Of a stretch of 60,078 nt of DNA, positions 3,769-36,400 are shown piece by piece. The position numbers were made by a program, and so were the translations under genes. How positions within the stretch are numbered: the stretch's first letter is position 1; each line of letters begins with the position of its first letter. Below the pieces are notes generated by a model, which worked only from the letters and a program-made list of their open reading frames with translations, was not told the origin of the DNA and did not search any database. Source of the stretch: a virus; IMG/VR virus record IMGVR_UViG_3300044475_000064, positions 1 through 60,078 of that record. One strand, written 5' to 3'.

Positions 3769-5400
3769 TTAAGCAGCCATACCGCCCTTATTACGGCGTT
3801 TTGGTCGCTTACCTGATTGTACAGCGTGACTATTGTTCACGAAAGTCTGAGCAGCTTGACGGAATGAGTCAGCGCCTTCCGTATGAATATCTTTAAGCGG
3901 CTCATCACTGAATGTCTGTGTCGATTCAACAAACTTCTTGCGATAGCTATCAAGGTGTAAGATACCTTCCTTACAACCTTCCTCATCGATCATGACCGAT
4001 GACATATAGTTACGTGTTGCACTAATCCCGTGCTGCAGCTCAGAGACACGAGGAACGACTTCAATATGTTTGAAGCCGAGGTTTTCGAGCATTGTGCGTG
4101 GTGAAATGTTGCTGACTTCGCCCTGACGTTCGTGTGCGCCGTCATGAGGCAGGTAGTGTCTGCCCCATATGCAGCCAGTCTGCTCCTGATATTTCTGCAT
4201 CAATCCGACAAAATGAGAGTAAGGCTCGCCCCACCCCTCAAAGAAACCAATAAACCGATGCCATGCGCCAACCTGTTGATGCAGCCACACGGCGCATCCG
4301 TCACCGCTGCCAATATCCCAAAACGAATTGACAGGAATACCAGGTTCAAACGGAACTTTACCTATGCGGCCATCTTTGCGCATCTTAGTCATTTGAACGG
4401 TGTAATAGCAGCCTTTGGTTGACTGTTGGAAAGCCTCGTCAGGTGTGGATGGATATTCCTGCCACATCGACTCATCTTCACCAGCGTAGAAACCATCGCG
4501 CATAGAGATCCACCAAGCACGTTGCTCGATGTCGATAAAGCACTTCATTTCAGCTTCGATGCGGTCAAAATATTCATGCTCTTTTTTAGATATAGCGATC
4601 AGATCTGCATCAACACGGTAGCTTTTATCATCCCACCACGGGAAAAAGTGGAACATGAACTCTTTACCAGTCATACGACGGCCAAGAGATTGCACACGGC
4701 GCGACTGCTGCACCATGTTGTAGAACTCGCCGCCACGACCTTCCGCCGTGGATTCAATGAAGATCAAGCCACGTTCTGCAGCTGGAAGTGCACCGCGCTG
4801 GATCTCCTTTGCTCGATCAGGATAGAGCGCACAGATCTTACCGTATTCAGAGATGTGCAGGTGTGTAAGCGTTCCTGAACGTCCTGACTGAGTTACACGG
4901 ATCTTTGAATTGTTATGCGCGAACTCAAGTGCATCAGCTCTGTTACGGCGTAGCGTGAAGATCGTAAGCAGCATTTCAGGCAGGTTTTCATAAGCGAACT
5001 TGACCTTATCCCCGAAAATTTCCTCTGCATCGTCCTTGGTGTGCGCAATGATCGCCGCCGTGACTGGCTTCTTCTTGTCAGCGAATAAAGCGCAGTCGAG
5101 ATAATAGATTGCAATGAATGTCGTGAAACCGAGCTGACGAGCCTTGAGAATGATATTGCGCTTATGAAAGCGTTTAAGCAGCTTTCTCTGTGCTCTGTTG
5201 GGCTTGAAGTAAACGACACGCTCAGCCTGTTCGCCGTTCGCATCATCTTCGGGCTTCGTTTTGATCTTATAGAGCTGTCCCGAACAAATCCGCCACATCG
5301 GATCTGACAAACACCAAGCGAACTCTTTTGGAGTGCTCGGTACAAACGTAAGCGGCACATCGCCTGGCTTAACTTGTTTAAGATCTTCGGGAATATTCAT
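3769..5400 (-). CDS. terL: Terminase large subunit
   Basis: 543 aa. The ATPase Walker-A-like segment NIILKARQLGFTTFIAIYY is followed by LIFIESTAEG. The C-terminal nuclease-like segment is FWDIGSGDGCAVWLHQ. Length and position are typical of TerL. Confidence 0.85.
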   Translation of the reverse strand: MNIPEDLKQVKPGDVPLTFVPSTPKEFAWCLSDPMWRICSGQLYKIKTKPEDDANGEQAERVVYFKPNRAQRKLLKRFHKRNIILKARQLGFTTFIAIYYLDCALFADKKKPVTAAIIAHTKDDAEEIFGDKVKFAYENLPEMLLTIFTLRRNRADALEFAHNNSKIRVTQSGRSGTLTHLHISEYGKICALYPDRAKEIQRGALPAAERGLIFIESTAEGRGGEFYNMVQQSRRVQSLGRRMTGKEFMFHFFPWWDDKSYRVDADLIAISKKEHEYFDRIEAEMKCFIDIEQRAWWISMRDGFYAGEDESMWQEYPSTPDEAFQQSTKGCYYTVQMTKMRKDGRIGKVPFEPGIPVNSFWDIGSGDGCAVWLHQQVGAWHRFIGFFEGWGEPYSHFVGLMQKYQEQTGCIWGRHYLPHDGAHERQGEVSNISPRTMLENLGFKHIEVVPRVSELQHGISATRNYMSSVMIDEEGCKEGILHLDSYRKKFVESTQTFSDEPLKDIHTEGADSFRQAAQTFVNNSHAVQSGKRPKRRNKGGMAA

Positions 5401-23179: not shown

Positions 23180-23690
23180 ACGTTTTGGAAGAAATCAGAA
23201 ACGAGCTATGCGTGAGCAGATTCGCCAAAATAAGCAATGTATTGATACAAAGAATCAATCGATCTTGGAACTAAAGCGGATGCTAAATGAATCCAACACC
23301 GTGATCGAGCGCACGTCTCAGGTGTTAGGTGATCATTTTGTTACGCTGCCAGTTAAGACAGTTGCGGTTAAGGAAATCCTTGAACGGTTTCAGGTGTCAA
23401 TATTTCAGCCACACCGCAGCTATGCAATCAACTCTGCAGTGATTCAAGCTTTAGATCTCATTGATATTATTGATATTGATACATATCAAGCAAGTCTGAA
23501 CGTAGACGAGCTAAGAGGCACAGTCCACATGCGCTACCAGTCGATTAATGGCAGTGTTGGCTATGGCTTATCAGAACATGCTTGGCGCAAGCTATCAGAA
23601 GCTCATCTTATTGACTTGCTGACAAAGCAGATTGCACCTGAAATGGCTAAACACCTGATCAAAAATCGCAACAATCGCTCTTTTAATTAA
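23172..23690 (+). CDS. Hypothetical protein (172 aa)
   Basis: ATG 23172 has RBS GAGGGTGA. Confidence 0.6.
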   Translation: MGKRFGRNQKRAMREQIRQNKQCIDTKNQSILELKRMLNESNTVIERTSQVLGDHFVTLPVKTVAVKEILERFQVSIFQPHRSYAINSAVIQALDLIDIIDIDTYQASLNVDELRGTVHMRYQSINGSVGYGLSEHAWRKLSEAHLIDLLTKQIAPEMAKHLIKNRNNRSFN

Positions 23691-23732
23691 TTTATACGGC
23701 GGCCAGTCGGTCGCCACACTCAGGAAAGGATT

Positions 23733-25499
23733 ATGAAAGAATATAAAATTGTAATTGGCCGCAACAAGGTAATTGCAACAGAGGTTAAGCATCTTGTTCG
23801 TGATCTTGGTTATTATAATAACTGGTCATTTGGTGAATATGATGCCTATGGTTGGACTTTTGCTAAAGATAGTTGTGGCTCAACTCAACACGAGCACACA
23901 TTTGAAGAATACAATTCTGCGCTAATTACACTGCATGATCTTCGCATGATGCTTGTTTCAAAAAATATCTTAGAACGTAATCAAATAAGTGATGCCAATT
24001 ACGAGGATGGATCTAATAAATTTTTTAAAACTTATAGCGGTGATCTTTATCATTTTTTTGATGGTTTATGGATTAAATGCAGTAGCTTAACAGCTGTATC
24101 AGAAACGTTAAAACCAATCCAATCTCAAGCGTTTGTCATAGCAGGTTTTGTCGTAGCAGGTGATGACCATTTCACTGCAGAGGCTAAGCCTTTGCTCACT
24201 GATTTTCGAATTAAAATTGATAGCAATAAAATGTGTGAAGAAGCACAGGAATTACTATTTAAGTTAGGTAAGAGTTGGAGTTGTGCTGGTTACAACTATA
24301 GCTATCCTCAAAAAGATATTTGGCTTCATACATCGGCGACTCAAATATTTTGGTGTCACGATAGCGATATTTTAGATTATAGCTATAAAGAAATAGTGAG
24401 CATTGATGATCTAAGGGAAATGCTTGTTAAGCAAGAGTATGTACCAACAGAATATTTGGATGCTGACGATAACTTCAAATACTATAAAACAACTAGCCCC
24501 ACATTCATAAGCGCCAGTTGGATCGAAATCCCTAATGATGCAGAAGCTTATTGGGCAAGCACCGATTTTGAAGGCTTTATCAAACATGACTCATGTGGTG
24601 CTTTGATGCTCTTTGAAAAAGAGCAATGGATATACGGTACAGGGATATTCAAAAATAAACTTAACAAAGCGATTTGGGTGCGGACTCAGCCTCCATCTGA
24701 GCCTGATCCATTCTTAAAAGAATACCTGACACCTGATTTCCGCCTCATGTTGGCAAGTGACCCTCATCCTAGCTGGATTGACGTGCCTAATGGAGCTAGA
24801 ACAGCTCTGCTTTGGGATGAGGGCACACTAGGTCAAGTCATCGAGTTCTATCGTGAGGACAATGTATATTTCAGTAATGAAAAACATCAGTGGTTACGTG
24901 GTATGAATTGGCAGGCTAAGTCAAAAACTGACTCTAGAGTTATATGGCAACGAGATCCGCAGCCCGTAACTGAACCTGATCCATTTATGAAAGAATATCT
25001 TGCACCCGAAGAAGGCTATGCACTTAAATTGGCAAGTGCGCCTAATGATGGATGGATTGAAGTGCCTGACGAATCAGTACATGCGATTGAACTTATAAGC
25101 ACTGTAGATTCATTTGTTGGCACAGTCCTATTTATGAATGCTGCAGGTCTTATATTCATACATGGTAAAACTAAAGAATTTGTGAATGGAACATATGATA
25201 CCGTTAAGGGATATGTTGATGATGGTGATTTGCTAGTTTGGTCACGCTATCCAAAATCTAATGAAACTGATAGTTCTGACCTCCCTAGTAGCATTGAATT
25301 TGCACCAATTGAAACGGTGTATCACTATTCAGCTTCGATCAATACGGCACGCGGCTCGGTCAGCTATGACGGCGTAGTCACCTTCACTGGTCGCATCACA
25401 GGCATCGAGGATTATCAGAAAGTCCGTGCTGAGATCGCCAAAGACGGCAGCGTTGCACCCGATCAAGTGAATATTCACAGCCTCACGATTGTAGGTTGA
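23733..25499 (+). CDS. Hypothetical 588-aa protein built from internal repeats
   Basis: Three repeats of about 95 aa start EYL(D/T/A).. and contain WIE(I/V)P or WIDVP. Two of them end (I/V)W(V/Q)R..P..EPDPF(L/M)K. The N-terminal module is duplicated (ITLHDLRMMLVSKN versus SIDDLREMLVKQEY). Confidence 0.75.
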   Translation: MKEYKIVIGRNKVIATEVKHLVRDLGYYNNWSFGEYDAYGWTFAKDSCGSTQHEHTFEEYNSALITLHDLRMMLVSKNILERNQISDANYEDGSNKFFKTYSGDLYHFFDGLWIKCSSLTAVSETLKPIQSQAFVIAGFVVAGDDHFTAEAKPLLTDFRIKIDSNKMCEEAQELLFKLGKSWSCAGYNYSYPQKDIWLHTSATQIFWCHDSDILDYSYKEIVSIDDLREMLVKQEYVPTEYLDADDNFKYYKTTSPTFISASWIEIPNDAEAYWASTDFEGFIKHDSCGALMLFEKEQWIYGTGIFKNKLNKAIWVRTQPPSEPDPFLKEYLTPDFRLMLASDPHPSWIDVPNGARTALLWDEGTLGQVIEFYREDNVYFSNEKHQWLRGMNWQAKSKTDSRVIWQRDPQPVTEPDPFMKEYLAPEEGYALKLASAPNDGWIEVPDESVHAIELISTVDSFVGTVLFMNAAGLIFIHGKTKEFVNGTYDTVKGYVDDGDLLVWSRYPKSNETDSSDLPSSIEFAPIETVYHYSASINTARGSVSYDGVVTFTGRITGIEDYQKVRAEIAKDGSVAPDQVNIHSLTIVG

Positions 25500-25502
25500 T
25501 AC

Positions 25503-25910
25503 ATGAAAGCCCTATCCATTCGCCAGCCGTGGGCGTGGTTGATCATTCACGGTGGGAAAGACATCGAAAATCGATCTTGGCATACAAAGCACCGTGGACG
25601 GTTTCTCGTCCATGCTGCTCAGGTCATGACACGCAAAGAGTATTATGATTGCAATCAGTTCGCTGAGCGCATCGGTGTCCGCATTCCTCCATTCGAGGAT
25701 CTGCAGCGTGGCGGTATCATCGGATCGGTTGAGTTAGTCGATAGCGTCAATAGCCATAAGTCGCCTTGGTACATGGGTGAAAAGGCTTTCGTGCTCCGAG
25801 ATCCTAAGCCACTCTCATACAAGCCATTAAACGGAAAGCTCGGATTTTTCGATGTGTCTGATGAACTATTTTCTGCGTCACATATCATATCGGAATATCA
25901 CGTTCGCTAA
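25503..25910 (+). CDS. ASCH (PUA-like) domain protein
   Basis: MKALSIRQPWAWLIIHGGKDIENRSW.. is the characteristic ASCH N-terminal signature. Confidence 0.75.
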   Translation: MKALSIRQPWAWLIIHGGKDIENRSWHTKHRGRFLVHAAQVMTRKEYYDCNQFAERIGVRIPPFEDLQRGGIIGSVELVDSVNSHKSPWYMGEKAFVLRDPKPLSYKPLNGKLGFFDVSDELFSASHIISEYHVR

Positions 25911-25929
25911 TGAGTCTTATTTTTCACAT

Positions 25930-25964
25930 AAAAAACCGCCATGCTGGAAACATGGCGGTTTTTT
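25930..25964. terminator. Rho-independent terminator ending the plus-strand early arm
   Basis: 8-bp stem CCGCCATG/CATGGCGG followed by T6 and preceded by an A-run. Confidence 0.8.
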
Positions 25965-26119
25965 GCGGATTACTTCAAAATGACAATGATATGTTTTACC
26001 AATCTGCCCCAACATCAAGCAGTACCATACTCACCAAGGAATACGAAACAAGTAACGCAGGCTTTCGGTATTCTGTGACATATCAGCACACAAAATAAAT
26101 ATAGCACTAATCTAAGCAT

Positions 26120-26148
26120 AAAAAAACCGCCATTTAAGGCGGTTTTTT
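26120..26148. terminator. Bidirectional rho-independent terminator ending the minus-strand late arm and tRNA cluster
   Basis: Stem ACCGCC/GGCGGT flanked by A7 and T6. Confidence 0.8.
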
Positions 26149-26155
26149 CTGAAAC

Positions 26156-26232
26156 TGGTTGCGAGAGTTGGATTTGAACCAACGACCTTCGGGTTATGAG
26201 CCCGATGAGCTACCAAGCTGCTCTATCACGCA
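26156..26232 (-). tRNA. tRNA-Met (anticodon CAT), initiator-like, CCA encoded
   Basis: Cloverleaf folded by hand, 77 nt: TGCGTGA TA GAGC AGCTTGGTA GCTC A TCGGG CTCATAA CCCGA AGGTC GTTGG TTCAAAT CCAAC TCTCGCA A CCA. It has a GGG/CCC anticodon stem and A11:T24 like bacterial tRNA-fMet. There is one T:T mismatch in the acceptor stem. Confidence 0.8.
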
Positions 26233-26236
26233 ATAT

Positions 26237-26312
26237 TGGTGCAAAGAAATGGGATCGAACCATTGACCTGCGGATCTTCAATCCACCACTCTACCGACTG
26301 AGTTATCTTTGC
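26237..26312 (-). tRNA. tRNA-Phe (anticodon GAA), CCA encoded
   Basis: 76 nt: GCAAAGA TA ACTC AGTCGGTA GAGT G GTGGA TTGAAGA TCCGC AGGTC AATGG TTCGATC CCATT TCTTTGC A CCA. All stems pair. Confidence 0.85.
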
Positions 26313-26318
26313 ATTTTG

Positions 26319-26396
26319 CTCGATGGGCCGGACTTGAACCAGCGACCTCCAAAGGGCTTTATACCTTTGCTACTCTACCGACTGAGCTACCAACGA
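26319..26396 (-). tRNA. tRNA-like gene with a non-canonical anticodon arm (possible pseudo-tRNA or unusual decoder). No CCA encoded.
   Basis: The acceptor stem (one T:T mismatch), D-arm (GCTC AGTCGGTA GAGT) and T-arm (GCTGG TTCAAGT CCGGC) are canonical. The anticodon arm is GCAAAGG-TATAAAGC-CCTTTGG, a 6-7 bp stem with an 8-nt loop. Confidence 0.55.
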
Positions 26397-26437
26397 AGTG
26401 TGAATATTAGCCAAACAAAAATATAATTGCAATAATA

Positions 26438-26460
26438 AAGCCGCATTTATTTTCGGCTTT
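26438..26460 (-). terminator. Weak hairpin between the endolysin and the tRNA cluster (attenuator or processing site?)
   Basis: Stem AAAGCCG/CGGCTTT with a 9-nt loop and an AT-rich tail. Confidence 0.35.
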
Positions 26461-26464
26461 ATTA

Positions 26465-26998
26465 TCATGCTGCTTTAGCTTCTTCAATGAGTACCTTGGC
26501 AACAGCCTTAGCAATCAACCATTTCTTGTCCTGCCATATCTTTAACTCAGCATCATTTGAGATAAAGAATACTTCGAGAATGATCCCACCACCACGGACA
26601 TAACCAAGTCGACTATGTTGGCCGCTATCTTCGGGCTTCCAGCCTTGAGCGCCACGCAAAGGAATGCCAGTAGCTTCATTGACTGCTTTGCAAAGCTTTT
26701 GGCTGATCAGTCGATCTTTGACTGCAGCAAGCGCCTCAACACCTTCGGCCTTTTTATTGGTTGATGCATTACAGTGGAACTCAACGGCGATGGCACTATC
26801 TTTAATCAGCTTGATCGCCTCATTAAGTGGTGCATTGCCTTTACCTTCGCCGTCAGTATGAATTGGTATACCTTCTGCAAGAAGATAATGTGCAACCATA
26901 TTGCGCATATCCTGGGCAATATCAGCCTCTCTGAAAATACCATTCACCGCGCCTGGATCTGTGTTGCTATGACCTGCAGTAATCGTAATTGTACGCAT
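26465..26998 (-). CDS. Endolysin, N-acetylmuramoyl-L-alanine amidase (Amidase_3-like)
   Basis: ITITAGHSNTDPGAV.. READIAQD .. AVEFHCNAS .. GVEAL follows the Amidase_3 zinc-ligand pattern. It lies adjacent to the holin. Confidence 0.8.
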   Translation of the reverse strand: MRTITITAGHSNTDPGAVNGIFREADIAQDMRNMVAHYLLAEGIPIHTDGEGKGNAPLNEAIKLIKDSAIAVEFHCNASTNKKAEGVEALAAVKDRLISQKLCKAVNEATGIPLRGAQGWKPEDSGQHSRLGYVRGGGIILEVFFISNDAELKIWQDKKWLIAKAVAKVLIEEAKAA

Positions 26999-27280: not shown

Positions 27281-27336
27281 GTGTGCTTACTCCTATTGTT
27301 AGCACATCATGCGCTAGGTATGTCATGTTTGTTACC

Positions 27337-27366
27337 ATTATAGACAAGCCATTTTCAGTTCAACAA
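27337..27366 (-). promoter_or_regulatory. Sigma70-like promoter of the lysis cassette (perfect TATAAT -10)
   Basis: Minus strand: TATAAT at 27342-27337. Candidate -35 is TTGAAC (15-nt spacer) or TTGTTG (18-nt spacer). Confidence 0.4.
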
Positions 27367-27379
27367 CACGAAAATATAT

Positions 27380-27406
27380 AAAAACCCCACCGAAGTGAGG
27401 TTTTTT
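27380..27406. terminator. Rho-independent terminator directly after the giant gene
   Basis: On the minus strand the stem is CCTCAC/GTGGGG (one G:U pair) with loop TTCG, followed by T5. T6 lies on the plus side. Confidence 0.65.
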
Positions 27407-27408
27407 GC

Positions 27409-30400: not shown

Positions 30401-33400
30401 GCGTCATATCCAAGTTCTTTAAGCTTAGGTACTAAATCGTTTGCCCAATGCTTATTTTTAAACTCATGTTTTGTTGAGTTCCAATCGAAATACCCATCCT
30501 TAGCCTGGTTCACAACACTCTGACCAAAGCGGCTGCTTGCTTGGATACCTGCCAAAACTTTCAAACCATGATCAGTATTTAGATCAAGTGGATTTTCAGA
30601 ACGCACATAGATCGGCTTAATACGAGCATCAGGATAAATTGGATTGATGTCTCCATAATCCATCATGTCCTGAATATCACGAGCGCTTAGGCGAGATCCA
30701 TCCTGACGGTTCACGTACTCATTACCATCAATTTCATAGATATTACCGTCATTGTCTTGATACACTGGATCGCTACGCTTACGCCCACCACCAGCACCTT
30801 GCGCATAACGATCAGCAATATCCATATCGTCAGTGGTATGAATCAGACCACCTGCCTTATCCTTATCCCATTGTGACCAGTTATCTCGTGTGCCGTGATA
30901 GCGAATTTGTGGTTTCCCATCCTCATCCACCACCTTACTGTCACCAAACCACTTTTTAAATTCAGGTGTGTTTGTCTGATCTTCACGGCTAAAACGAGAG
31001 CCTGATCCATGACTCGCATTGAAAGCAATCAGATAATTTTCATAGACTGTTTTCTCCTGATCCACGATCTTGAATCCTGCATCCGCATCAGGAATATAAC
31101 CCTCTTTGGTCTTGTCACCATTGCCACCAATAACAACGCCATCCTTACCAAGCAGCCAAACATAGCTATCAGTTTTCGGCGCAAAGCGCTTATCAAAACC
31201 AGTTCTTCGGCTATATGGCTGATCAGAATATTCGCTTATTGATAAAGCATTGACGCTTACACCCTCTCTAAAGCCATCTGTCAAAATTGGTTCACGGTTA
31301 GATTCACCACCTCTGAAATCAACATGGATGCTCTTATATTTTTTAAAGAACTGTTTTTTAGTGAGTGGCTTATTTGATGTGTCAGCCTTGCTGAAACGGC
31401 GCATACCATTTGCATCGCGATTGCCAAGCGTATTGACCATACGCTCAGCCAAGGCGAGTACATCATTCGCATTCAGATTGAGATTTAAGCCAAGCTTATC
31501 CACTGCCCATGCTTTGACGGCGGCAACGATGCGATTGACAAGAGTTTGCACACCTGGTCGCTTGTTCTGCGCACGAGCTGCAACGGTGATCAGATACGGA
31601 AGATACTCATCCTGACGAGCAGCTGCATCTGTCTCACGCTCAGCAAGGCGTTTTGCCTCAAGTGCGATAGGATCTTTAGCAGCCACCAAGCGATCAAACT
31701 GATCCATCAGGTTCTTGTAGGCAGTCGGCTTCATCACGCCCTGCATACCAGCGTGACCACCGAGCTCATGCAGAAACACTGGAACAATGGTGTCAGGTGT
31801 TAGAGCGTTTGCAACGAGCGTTACGTTCCCATCCTGCGCATAACCCTCGACACCTGCAATACGGAAACTGTCATCAATGCTCAGAATGCCTTGATCCTCA
31901 AGACGAGTGATCACGTCCTTGCCGAAACGCTCAATCAGACGATTGCGGACATCGGCAACAGTTATGCCAGTACCCTTCCGATCACCTTGGCTGAATAGTA
32001 GTTTTTCCTGCTGTGCGATGATGCGAGCACGATCACCTTCTGATTTAGGATCATAGGTTTTGATCTTTAATCCTGCATCACGTAGTACCTGCAGCGCATC
32101 TTTATCCATACCCTTTGGCACAACAGCGGTATTGAACTCGCTGAATTGAACGGCACGCTGAGCCTTCGCCTCAAAGTACGCCGTTGGTAGGTTTGCAAGG
32201 TAACTGGTCAGGTCGGCAATGATCTTGCGTGACTCAGGTGTGACCTTAAATGCCTCACGAATGCCTTTCTGCCCCTCCGCGATTGCAGATCCAGCATCAT
32301 TGAGATAGCCCCAACCGTTCGTGTCGTATTTGTAGAATGGTTTGAGACGTTCAAGCGCATCCTCAAATACCTTGGACGATTCCTCTTTTAGCTTCTCCAT
32401 TTCAGCCTCAGTGACGATCTGATCACGGCGAGATTGGATGTCTTTGAGCGTTTTCATTTCATTGGCGTAAGCAGAGCGTGCGCTACCTGCACCATAGAAT
32501 GTGCCCTCACCTGCCTGTAGCTGCTGAGTCATTTCAGACACGACGTTCTCAAGCGTGTAAGGCAGATATTTTTTGTTTCCTGCATTGGTAAAGCCTTTAA
32601 ATAAGGTCTTACCAGTCACCATCGAATTGAATTTATCGGTTGCCCATTTCTCGAAAGCTGCGCGTGTTTTTTCATTACGCATCTTTTCCGAAAGATCGCT
32701 TCTCAATTGAGCATAATCGTAACCACCACTTTTGCGGTAGTTGTCTGCTTTCATAGCTAAGTCATCAAGTGCATACGGCTTGAGCGTACCATCCTCGTTG
32801 TAATAACGTGCCTTTGCACGAGCCACGCCTTTTTGATTGATCTCACGCATAACCTCCTTTGCATCATCAGGCAAAGCAGGATCAATTGGCTTCTCGTACT
32901 CAGCGATGCGAGACTCAAAATACTTTTTAGCAATGGCAGCAAATTTTGGATCTTGTGGCCATGAGAAGCGAGATCCTTCCAGTTTTGCAGCGTTCTTGAT
33001 GTATGGATTGACCTTAGCCTGTTTCAATTTTGGTGCTTTGCCGATCTCATTGAGATATGCAAGCTGCATTGCATCTGATCGAACAAAGTTTTCAGCTCCG
33101 TCTGTACCACTCGCCTCATCGAGACTCGGCAAGCGAAGTCCGTTTGCATTCTGTTCAAGCTCGCTGAGCAGCGCATTAAATTTCTTCTTGTCTAGCTCAT
33201 AGCTTGCCCGTGGCTGACGTGGAGAATAAATATCTGCATCGAACGTGCGGATCTTTGAATCCTCAAGAAGCTTCGGATCTGCCAATAGGGTGACTTCACC
33301 AAAGCCTGAGAAGTCAGACACATCAGAACGAGCGACGGCGATAGATGGTGCAGCAAGCCCACCTAGATCGTTCGCAGCCAAAATGTTCGATGCGCTCAGG

Positions 33401-36400
33401 TTGTGAGCGACAAATAGATTTTTAGGTTGTTCATCAGTCTTTGAAAACTGAGCTTTCTCACCGTTCAGATTAACAATTTCTGAATATCCGTACTTATCCT
33501 TGGTCACAACCGCATCGTAACCAGCCCTTTTGATCGCTGCAGACAGCGCCTTACCTGTCTTGCCGTCAAACATTTCCGACAAGTCTTTTTTCCACCCACT
33601 GCTGTCAGTGGATTTATGCTCAAGCACAAGCGGATTTTTGAACGAGATCACACCGTACTGCCAACCAGGACTGTTCATGGCTGACATATCATCAGTCGCA
33701 ATGTTCATGTACTCGCCTGCAGGTTCTAAATCCTGCCCAAAGTCCATGCCTTGTGGATAGTTCTTGCTGCTGACTGTGTTGCGAGAGAAATACGCATTAA
33801 TTGGCTTACCAGTCTCAGCATCTTTCGGATCTGTGAGATCAGCGCGGCTGAAACGAATATCAGGATTGGTCGGATCGAATGCACCAGTGTTGTCAGTGGC
33901 GGATTTGATTTGCTCAGGACTGAATGTCACATAGATTGTTGAAGGTTTATAAATATCCTTGGCAACCTTTTCAGCTCGCTTTAGATCTGCAGCATCTAAT
34001 GAGTCAACCTCGACATATTCACCATCAAGCTTAATATAACTTCCATAATCAATAACATTAGAAAGAATAGCACCATCTTTTCCATCGTTTTTTGCACGAT
34101 GAGCCATAAGGTTCGTATCACTTACACCAAACAAGGCCTCGTCAATTTCAAAATCTTGAAGGTTATGATGTTCCGCAAATGACTTTGCGTCTTTCTCAGA
34201 ATCGAAAATAAATTGGCCATTATCACCAATAAATGTATCAAAACCATCTACAGTGATTTGATAAGCTTTTTTTTCTCCTTGGATTGTTCCATTCCACATA
34301 TTTCCACGGTAGTTGGCAAGTTGTGGATCTCTAATATTTAGGAATACTGGATAAATTCCAGGTGATGCCTCATCGCTATCATACTCATCACTTGCTTTTG
34401 CTTCGTCAATAGATCCTGCATAACTAACTGCGACATCACGATTTGCCGCAAAAAATGAAGATCCAGGCGGTGTCTCAGAGAAGCGAGGCTCAGCGTCGTT
34501 ATCAAATTCAGAAAAACCAGCCTGTTTCGCTCCATGATAAACCACCAACGGCTCACCATTCTCATCAACCACCTGTGATGCGTTGGAAGCATCGTTTTCC
34601 CAATCACCAAACCAGTTTTTAAATGACGGCGTGCGTACCTGCAACCATTGCTGCTCATTCAAATTGGTTAGTTTTCCGTTAGGCGCTTTCATCCATTGGT
34701 CAGTGCCTTCGTACTGTTTGCGCACATCATTTATCTCAGAATTTTGATTGTCCGCACGGCTGAAACGTAACTTCTTGTCAAACCAATAATCCTCTAGGAA
34801 CTTGCCAAGGCTTTCAGGATTCGTACCTGAGAATAGTAGCTGCCCGTCTTGGCGCTCGATGCGAATGCGACCTTTCTTCTCAACGATACGAACGCCTGTG
34901 TCCTTGCCCTTATTGGATAGTATCGCGCCGTCAGAATTGACTGAGCGACCATATTGCTGTGCTACATCATCGTACTTCTGAAATTTGTTTTCAGTATTGG
35001 ATTCTTCGGCTGGTTTCGCCTTAGTAGTATGCTTCGCTTTCGGCGTAGGTGTATCTATAAGTCGCATTTCACTTAACGGCGTACCAACATCCACACCCTT
35101 ACGAGTGAACAAAATAGAGCCATCATCCAAAATTTTACGATCAAAACGTGGCTGAATTAACTGACGTGTAAGTGGGCGTAATTTTATGCCTTTTTGGATA
35201 AGGATTTGATCAATCGCATCCATACCAATAAAGTCAGTCACATATTCACGACCTGTAATGTCGCCAGTACCAGGCTTATAGTTTTCCTTGCCTGATACTG
35301 CATCGCCACGCATCTGAACTAAGATGCCTTTGTTAGCACCCTGACCCATTGCGAGATCAATATTATCGGCAACATACAATTGGGATGTGTTGCCGCCGCC
35401 ATTAGTCAATGTATTGCGTGTTAGATCATATAAGCCTTCCGCATCCATTTCACGGTAAACAGTTTTGCCAATAGGTGTTGTTTTTCCTGTGAATGGTCCA
35501 ACATTATAATTTTTTGGCATGGATGGACGTTCGGTCTTAGCCGCTTCCTTTTTAGCCATAGTGTCTTTAACAACTAGTGTTTTTACGGCTTCCTGTGCCT
35601 CAGCTAGAGTGTCGTAGTATCCATATTCATTACCATTATTCTCATCACGATACAGTGTAAAAATAGGATACGGCTTATCATTACGCATACGAGACTCATC
35701 AACAATGATCATACCGTTTGATGCAATCCACGTTTTATCACGAGTATCATGTGTCGACCATGTGATTTTTGTCTCATCACTGATCTTCTTCTCGATTTCC
35801 TTGTTTTTACGATACTCAATGTAACGTTTGAGGTCAGCTTTCTCATTGAGCAGGCTTTCTTTCATGCGCTCAGCTTTATTTACAGCACGTTTCTCATGAG
35901 CTTTAGGATCATTAATAATTGCATCCTGCTCAGCAATGTTCTGATCAATTCTAGGAAAATCTGCTTGTAGCTTCTCAATAGATATATGACCTTTGCTTTG
36001 GTCATAGTCTTTGATATTTCTTTCAAAAGAAATCTGATCCTTAGATTTTTTAGCAACAGGCGTAGTCTTAGGCTGACTGGTATCTACAGTCGAACTAGGG
36101 AACTCATGAGCAGTCACAACTAGGTCACGAATAGGCGCATTCAGGCGAATGACTTTCACATCCTCACCAGTTTCACGCGCAGCCATCCATTGATGATGAC
36201 CATCAAGAACATGGTTATCACTTGAGATCAGGATTGATCGGTTGCCACCTTCATAATTTTTAGCCTTATCAACCTTCTCCTGCGAGAACTCGGCTTGTGT
36301 CGGTTTTAGGCTGTCAGCGGTAACTGTTTCCTCCTGGTGTGAGATACCGCGTGCATTCATAAAGTTGACCATTGCGCCACGGTGTTCGGCTTTGATCTGT

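Follow-up and report, generated by a model that had tools for sequence, protein, structure and literature searches.

Introduction

The tRNA-like gene described here raises the question of what a phage tRNA gene does when its anticodon arm presents no ordinary anticodon, and whether such a gene is a decaying remnant, an unusual decoder or an RNA with another function. Phage tRNAs are now seen as weapons in the contest over the host tRNA pool, and the known examples are ordinary decoders with small changes. The tRNA-Lys of phage T5 defeats PARIS, a tRNA-cleaving defence (PMC11464382), phage tRNAs are directed against retron effectors (PMC11555353), and mutation of the anticodon loop has been hypothesized to serve phage tRNAs against tRNA-cleaving defences (PMC10264068). 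If the explanation favoured below is true, phages would have a second strategy over the host tRNA pool, based on mimicry rather than on replacement. The gene is also a natural test of how much lengthening of the anticodon arm a tRNA body tolerates.

The window, i.e. the whole stretch of DNA that was analysed, is a complete phage genome of 60,078 bp with direct terminal repeats. Three features assign the phage to the PEp14/Pavtokvirus/Bcep22-like podophage group: a major capsid protein with 86% identity to its counterpart in Erwinia phage PEp14, a multidomain virion protein of 4,445 residues and a PAPS-reductase-like gene. A preliminary description had drawn attention to the gene and had offered four readings of it: a decaying pseudo-tRNA, a tRNA with a very short insertion, a quadruplet or otherwise unconventional decoder, and a tRNA-shaped regulatory or decoy RNA. 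In this study, we compare the gene with its orthologues, with canonical tRNA-Asn and with known unconventional tRNAs, and we describe the cassette and the lysis locus in which it resides. The explanation that we tentatively favour, as a serious possibility somewhat short of probable, is that the gene encodes a functional, tRNA-shaped RNA under selection, which derives from tRNA-Asn, has given up normal decoding and acts through its tRNA body, likeliest as a mimic or competitor.

Architecture of the tRNA-like gene

The gene and its anticodon arm comprise the following features.

26319–26396, minus strand: odd tRNA-like gene, 78 nt (Rfam RF00005, ARAGORN, minimum-energy fold and orthologues)
26349–26370, minus strand: expanded anticodon arm, 22 nt (direct reading and Rfam; size invariant and pairing kept in three lineages)
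26356–26363, minus strand: 8-nt loop UAUAAAGC (direct reading)

Direct reading places all of the features of the preliminary description at 26319–26396, on the minus strand, and every detail given there is correct. The acceptor stem, UCGUUGG/CCAUCGA, comprises 7 bp with a U4:U69 mismatch, which was reported as T:T and is conserved across the three copies of the gene discussed below. The D arm has a 4-bp stem, GCUC/GAGU, and the loop AGUCGGUA; the T arm has a 5-bp stem and the loop UUCAAGU, and ends in GGUUCAAGUCC. The variable loop consists of 5 nt, and the discriminator G73 is followed by CAAAAU, so that CCA is not encoded in the window copy, as had been stated. All of the core nucleotides are in place (U8, A14, G18-G19, A21, G15 with C48, and G46), A9 and A26 are present, and the T-loop UUCAAGU and the G53-C61 pair are likewise intact. 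By both reading and folding, the acceptor, D and T stems of 7, 4 and 5 bp and the conserved core and elbow nucleotides are those of a tRNA, and the cloverleaf is the minimum-energy fold; the canonical nature of these three arms is thus confirmed.

The anticodon arm is different. It reads GCAAAGG-UAUAAAGC-CCUUUGG and occupies 22 nt, compared with the usual 17. The outermost 'pair' of the window copy is G.G, which leaves six Watson–Crick pairs and an 8-nt loop, and this 6-bp stem with its 8-nt loop forms the long arm of the lowest-energy cloverleaf. The Rfam tRNA model (RF00005) scores the gene at 40.2 bits, above the gathering cut-off of 29, and its alignment accommodates 12 nt in place of the 7-nt loop of the model; reading and alignment thus agree with the preliminary account of the long stem, the 8-nt loop and the 12 nt where seven are expected. 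In none of the three lineages does a 5-bp anticodon stem close a 7-nt loop in which U33 and purine 37 flank a triplet. The generic tRNA model accepts the gene, its anticodon arm does not fit that of a tRNA, and no described family matches it.

Alternative folding had been proposed as a check on the absence of an ordinary anticodon. ARAGORN calls the window copy 'tRNA-Phe (aaa)', with the anticodon at position 37; the program prints no structure, and the register that we reconstructed from this reported position requires a shifted stem with one mismatch and three unpaired junction bases. Compared with the long-arm fold, this register carries a penalty of 7.4 kcal/mol (a range of 7–8 kcal/mol overall). 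For the two orthologues, ARAGORN reports 'Leu (taa)' and 'Ser (cga)'. As the calls differ between orthologues and the register is unfavourable, no consistent normal anticodon is assigned by the software, and the Phe, Leu and Ser labels that annotation pipelines attach to the three orthologues are misleading.

Two minor observations concern the arm itself. The 5′ strand of the arm and the start of the loop (GCAAAGGUAUAA; 26364–26370) resemble the 5′ end of the neighbouring tRNA-Phe (GCAAAGAUAA; 26306–26312); the resemblance is weaker in the orthologues L141 and L143 and may be a coincidence or a trace of the origin of the arm. The loop contains TATAAA, and direct reading found no usable −35 element for an internal promoter there.

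Orthologues in other phages

Orthologues were reached through the closest relatives of the adjacent amidase in a large protein collection. The same arrangement directly after the lysis genes occurs in two further lineages, represented by contigs L141 (to which L142, an independent assembly, is identical) and L143, with the gene at L141:2352–2429 and L143:4111–4188. The two orthologues score 43.9 and 52.1 bits against RF00005. Their arms read GCAAGGG-UAUAAAGU-CCUUUGG in L141 and CCAAAGG-UAUCGAGC-CCUUUGG in L143, and the long-arm cloverleaf is the minimum-energy structure of all three copies. Comparison of homologous loci, as the preliminary description had suggested, thus yields an identical 7-8-7 arm geometry in the window, L141/L142 and L143. 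In L143 the outer G.G is replaced by C-G, which gives seven Watson–Crick pairs and a longer helix. The neighbouring genes are also shared: the odd tRNA is followed by tRNA-Phe(GAA) and tRNA-Met in L141 and by tRNA-Phe(GAA) in L143, where a third gene, cut off by the end of the contig, can be read as a diverged tRNA-Met, and the L142 contig ends just past tRNA-Phe.

The window is a metagenome-assembled genome, and a spurious insertion of 5 nt into a normal tRNA during sequencing or assembly might in principle produce such an arm. The three additional contigs (ENA ERZ25038541, Logan ERR14146954 and Logan ERR11042456) come from different samples and assemblers and repeat the 22-nt geometry; an artefact is therefore ruled out, and we give this explanation practically no weight.

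DNA-pattern scans of IMG/VR, JGI metagenomes and GTDB genomes and protein-based scans of IMG/VR yielded no copy; the pattern scans returned unrelated odd tRNAs, normal tRNA-Asn and tRNA-Lys genes, or chance 18-mers in coding sequence. The cultured relatives PEp14, Stean, Pavtok, Itty13 and Skulduggery carry no tRNAs at all, the cassette is present in none of the IMG/VR relatives found through flanking proteins, and the gene is absent from the amidase relatives L140, L144–L149, L152–L169 and L170 from Logan, ENA and NCBI. Searches of the literature yielded no account of the element. Irregular anticodon arms of other kinds are present in tRNA genes of other uncultivated phages (L046:181–258, minus strand; L039:7729–7804; L040:5449–5503); one of these genes belongs to an array of seven tRNAs and is given a four-base anticodon in its label, 'tRNA-??? 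(cgaa)', and the arms of the other two measure 19 nt and 25 nt, the latter with a palindromic hairpin.

Descent from tRNA-Asn

Outside the anticodon arm, the gene has the body of a tRNA-Asn. It carries U1-A72 and G73, which is the Asn/Gln signature, and canonical tRNA-Asn(GUU) likewise has U1-A72, G73 and a class I variable loop of 5 nt. In GTDB genomes, the normal tRNAs with the same D-arm and T-arm sequences are all tRNA-Asn(GUU), and the two matches to these arms in IMG/VR are one tRNA-Asn(GUU) and one tRNA-Lys(UUU). Among cultured phages, blastn gave its best matches to the tRNA-Asn genes of Ralstonia phages RP12 and RP31 and Burkholderia phage FLC9. From U8 to C28, i.e. through the D arm and the junction, the tRNA-Asn genes of FLC9 and of the IMG/VR contig L046 are identical to the odd gene, and the T arm is nearly identical to that of canonical tRNA-Asn, differing from that of L046 at position 63 alone. 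These similarities establish, at the level of sequence, that the gene descends from a tRNA-Asn gene.

The differences from canonical tRNA-Asn lie in the acceptor stem, the sequence of which is different and includes the conserved U:U mismatch, and in the arm, which has 22 nt rather than 17 and lacks both a 7-nt loop and GUU; none of the loops UAUAAAGC (window), UAUAAAGU (L141) and UAUCGAGC (L143) contains this anticodon. The whole arm departs from that of tRNA-Asn, beyond the 5 nt by which it is longer, and the proposal of a tRNA with a very short insertion is consequently too simple.

Conservation and selection

The three copies of the odd tRNA are 91–94% identical in pairwise comparisons, close to the 93–96% of the tRNA-Phe genes of the same three lineages. 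The adjacent amidase genes are 75–78% identical overall and 46–54% identical at third codon positions, a comparison that is weakened by the mobility of the cassette, which may be younger than the amidase. The non-coding flanks within the cassette are 53–65% identical, against about 49% for shuffled sequence; since they lie inside the same cassette as the gene, this second comparison is unaffected by mobility. The gene is thus conserved well above its flanks.

Nine positions are substituted among the three copies, with no insertion or deletion in 78 nt. Four of the nine are in stems (10:25, 27:43, 31:39 and 51:63 in tRNA numbering), and all four keep or create pairing: G.U becomes G-C, A-U becomes G.U, G.G becomes C-G and U.G becomes U-A. 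The other five are located in the D loop, the variable loop and the anticodon loop. The anticodon loop is the fastest-changing part, with three of its eight positions varying, including an adjacent AA to CG change, the reverse of the usual pattern in decoding tRNAs. With three distinct sequences and no double compensatory change, covariation statistics are uninformative. At the 3′ end, G73 is followed by CAA in the window, CTA in L141 and CCA in L143, i.e. CCA is encoded in one of the three odd copies, and it is encoded in all five of the neighbouring Phe and Met genes the 3′ ends of which lie within the fetched DNA.

These data bear on the possibility of a dead passenger, in which a tRNA-Asn gene was inactivated by rearrangement of its arm and appears conserved through recent spread of the cassette. 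Of the three tRNAs of the window, the odd gene scores lowest in Rfam, and it has a mismatched acceptor stem and, in two copies, no CCA; the cassette is mobile and patchy and is found as a decayed remnant in L150 and L151; and the likeness of the window arm to the 5′ end of tRNA-Phe hints at illegitimate recombination. The non-tRNA parts of the cassette, however, are 53–65% identical compared with 91–94% for the odd gene, and the short inter-tRNA spacers have also diverged by substitutions and indels. The neutral rate, broken pairs and indels of a pseudogene are not seen among the three sequences: none of the nine substitutions breaks a pair, and the replacement of the outer G.G by C-G in L143 lengthens the helix. 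Conservation like that of a tRNA, without broken pairs or indels, argues strongly against a freely decaying pseudogene. The 'decaying pseudo-tRNA' of the preliminary description is accordingly disfavoured, as the gene is conserved like the adjacent tRNA-Phe between flanks of nearly random identity and its stem changes keep pairing; we consider a dead passenger unlikely.

Can the RNA decode?

The anticodon loop retains one feature that keeps a decoding role alive. Loop positions 3 (U36) and 7 (G40) are invariant and flank a variable triplet, as U33 and purine 37 do in a real anticodon loop. The RNA might accordingly be an unconventional decoder that is charged and used on the ribosome, reading with the triplet AAA (CGA in L143) between the U33-like uridine and the G37-like purine or with a four-base anticodon, and the CCA encoded by the L143 copy would suit such a role. 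Loops of 8 nt on otherwise normal bodies are known from +1 frameshift-suppressor and quadruplet tRNAs (sufD, SufB2 and engineered four-base decoders), in which they can decode (PMC7803779, PMC9094753).

The likeness to the suppressor tRNAs ends with the loop size. In these tRNAs the stem has 5 bp, U33 immediately precedes the anticodon and the extended anticodon is defined, whereas the odd gene has six to seven pairs, an A at loop position 2 and central loop bases that vary between orthologues. The stem exceeds the standard by two pairs with normal connectors and no compensating shortening. Natural anticodon stems of more than 5 bp are found in tRNA-Sec and tRNA-Pyl, which have six pairs, compensating changes elsewhere and a normal 7-nt loop; the odd gene combines six to seven pairs with an 8-nt loop and standard connectors.

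Aminoacylation poses a further difficulty for a decoder. The anticodon GUU is the main identity element for asparaginyl-tRNA synthetase and is needed for Asn identity, and Ser identity needs a long variable arm. The candidate anticodon of the odd gene varies among orthologues that share one body and one discriminator, which leaves no consistent synthetase identity. Nor does the phage show a need for such a decoder. The adjacent tRNA-Phe(GAA) already reads UUU; an efficient reader of UUUA, for example, would meet this quadruplet in frame 66 times in 18 intact genes that total 11,572 codons, one of them an unbroken ORF of 4,445 codons; no sign of a broken frame was seen in any protein of the subset of ORFs scanned against PHROGs or Pfam; and an almost identical phage fragment, L140, lacks the cassette. 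Of the proposed quadruplet or unconventional decoder, the 8-nt loop therefore stands, while the overlong stem, the varying anticodon, the in-frame UUUA and the unbroken frames make it improbable.

The anti-defence tRNAs of phages are a parallel in setting. Like them, the odd gene belongs to a small accessory set of tRNAs and deviates chiefly in the anticodon stem-loop. They differ in being functional decoders that carry point substitutions and take the place of a cleaved host tRNA by reading the same codons; the odd RNA, which to judge from its loop has no standard anticodon, could not replace tRNA-Asn in this way. The longer helix with normal connectors, the variable 8-nt loop, the loss of GUU, the loss of CCA from most copies and the lack of a need for a special decoder are signs that normal decoding has been given up.

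The tRNA cassette and its putative promoter

The odd tRNA is the first unit of a compact cassette, in the order promoter, odd tRNA, tRNA-Phe(GAA), tRNA-Met(CAU) and terminator.

26148–26463, minus strand: swappable cassette of 316 bp, promoter to terminator (blastn of L140 against the window)
26404–26432, minus strand: putative sigma-70-like promoter, −35 TTGCAA (26432–26427), 17-bp spacer, −10 TAATAT (26409–26404)
26237–26312, minus strand: tRNA-Phe(GAA), canonical, CCA encoded (ARAGORN; Rfam, 67.2 bits)
26156–26232, minus strand: tRNA-Met(CAU), CCA encoded, U5:U68 mismatch (Rfam, 65.5 bits)
26120–26148, no strand assigned: G+C-rich hairpin between A and T runs (direct reading)

Seven nucleotides separate the putative promoter from the 5′ end of the odd tRNA. 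In the window it matches the consensus at 8 of 12 positions and for this reason is not listed by the promoter scanner. The −35/−10 pair is kept in the three lineages, with a −35 element of TTGCAA, TTGCAT or TTGTAA, a 17-bp spacer and the −10 element TAATAT, a pattern that suggests a functional promoter. The hairpin at 26120–26148 looks like a bidirectional terminator that closes both the tRNA cassette and a convergent early operon, and analogous hairpins follow tRNA-Met in L141 and L150. The acceptor stem of the window tRNA-Met has a U1-A72 pair in addition to its U5:U68 mismatch, and the odd tRNA also has a U:U mismatch in this stem (4:69).

The cassette is exchanged as a unit. L140 lacks it despite being 99.8% identical to the window over 23606–26147 (about 2.5 kb, blastn), the 316 bp between the amidase stop codon and the terminator being replaced by 196 bp. 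In L147 and L148, lysis genes of the same type are followed downstream by a related tRNA-Phe (77% identity over 83 nt), without the odd leader. In L150 (2592–2737) and L151 (1276–1421), a cassette remnant is left, comprising the −10 element and the first 21 nt of the odd tRNA, about 50 unrelated nucleotides and the 3′ part of tRNA-Met; an integrase gene lies a few hundred bases beyond it. Most close relatives are without the cassette, and any benefit that it confers would therefore be conditional.

The fixed position of the gene invites an explanation in cis, in which a former tRNA-Asn is kept as a tRNA-shaped 5′ module that offers a handle for RNase P and protects or punctuates the Phe–Met transcript, having no function once released. 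The odd gene always comes first, right after the promoter, the predicted leader is just a few nucleotides long, its body is more conserved than its arm and loop, and CCA is dispensable in two of the three copies, all of which a cis-acting leader would account for. A normal tRNA would serve equally well, however, and neither the rebuilding of the arm nor the retention of its exact size and pairing in three lineages is explained; moreover, the tRNA-Phe of L147 and L148 manages without such a leader. We regard a leader role as rather unlikely and prefer a mimic that acts in trans to a cis leader of a small operon.

A possible route to a tRNA mimic

Under the favoured explanation of a maintained, non-decoding mimic, a sigma-70-type promoter of the gene's own would drive the synthesis of a precursor of three tRNAs (odd, Phe and Met, in this order), from which host tRNA-processing enzymes would release the odd RNA, cleavage by RNase P at the 5′ end of tRNA-Phe leaving a trailer of 6 nt. 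The released RNA would be expected to adopt the normal L-shape because the elbow and core nucleotides are all intact. Its anticodon helix is predicted to be two G-C pairs longer than that of any standard tRNA and to end in an 8-nt loop without GUU for asparaginyl-tRNA synthetase, so that the RNA would most likely not be charged with Asn and would fail to read codons in the A site of the ribosome. Its most likely role would then be that of a mimic of, or competitor for, tRNAs on a protein of the host or of a rival element that binds them by the acceptor/T/D region. The mimic would form part of an accessory cassette that helps the phage to keep translation going. Expression, processing, the lack of decoding and the mimic role are all deduced here from the genes and their comparison. 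Among the four readings of the preliminary description, a tRNA-shaped regulatory or decoy RNA fits best; its example of a decoy for anticodon nucleases seems unlikely, as the loop is unlike any normal anticodon loop. The descent from tRNA-Asn, the putative promoter of the cassette and its exchange as an accessory unit had not been noted in that description. More speculatively, and with less confidence than for this one gene, phages may possess a class of 'long-arm' tRNA mimics, derived from tRNA-Asn and foldable and processable yet non-decoding, that bind or titrate a tRNA-recognizing protein in trans, such as a defence nuclease, an acceptor-end toxin or a host tRNA enzyme, and travel with helper tRNAs in a swappable anti-defence cassette.

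The lysis locus as a site of exchange

The tRNA cassette immediately follows the lysis genes and separates the convergent early operon from the holin–amidase pair. The lysis locus is a site at which accessory genes are exchanged, probably ones related to conflict. On the other side of the lysis cassette in many relatives, Tad2-like (PF11195), Sequestin (PF21825) and Phage_gp49_66 genes are present between the gene for a giant virion protein and the holin; genes just upstream of the holin occur in L140, L141, L150, L152, L159, L166 and L168, and the corresponding slot of the window (27281–27408) is empty. The occurrence of Tad2-like and Sequestin-type anti-defence genes by the same lysis cassette counts in favour of the mimic reading.

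In the window and in L141, the tRNA cassette directly follows the amidase gene (26465–26998 in the window), and there is no spanin gene at this place in the window. A Phage_lysis (Rz-type spanin) gene follows the amidase in L143, L144–L148, L150–L155, L159, L161, L166, L168 and L169.

Two other ideas about the locus were considered and set aside. The giant virion protein of the window, of 4,445 residues, has SLT, ART-PolyVal, PBECR5 and LPD39 domains, and its PBECR5 module (Barnase-EndoU-colicin E5/D-RelE-like) is encoded at 32977–33489 on the minus strand. This module is absent from the tRNA-less relatives that were examined, namely PEp14, Pavtok, Itty13 and a close IMG/VR relative covering the region. 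A link between the odd tRNA and this RNase module was dropped, since the L143 phage has the odd tRNA and no PBECR5 in its pre-computed Pfam list. An origin as an attP or integration site was likewise rejected: there is no integrase among the window ORFs scanned, and the gene is conserved as a whole tRNA. Integrases are encoded near the tRNA site in L147 and L150. L147 represents a temperate relative in which a weak, sub-threshold match to Hammerhead_HH9 (30 bits, cut-off 52) lies at 4565–4613, between tRNA-Phe and the integrase gene.

The post-lysis slot also holds another small non-coding element. The 196-bp segment of L140 contains a near-invariant element of about 95 nt (L140:1955–2075), which is also present at L049:6278–6383, L050:3118–3220, L159 and L166:2639–2741, and L161:1624–1726. 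It has no Rfam match, and RNAalifold predicts several hairpins in it. The element is 93–97% identical between phages the amidases of which differ far more, and it may be an alternative small-RNA cassette.
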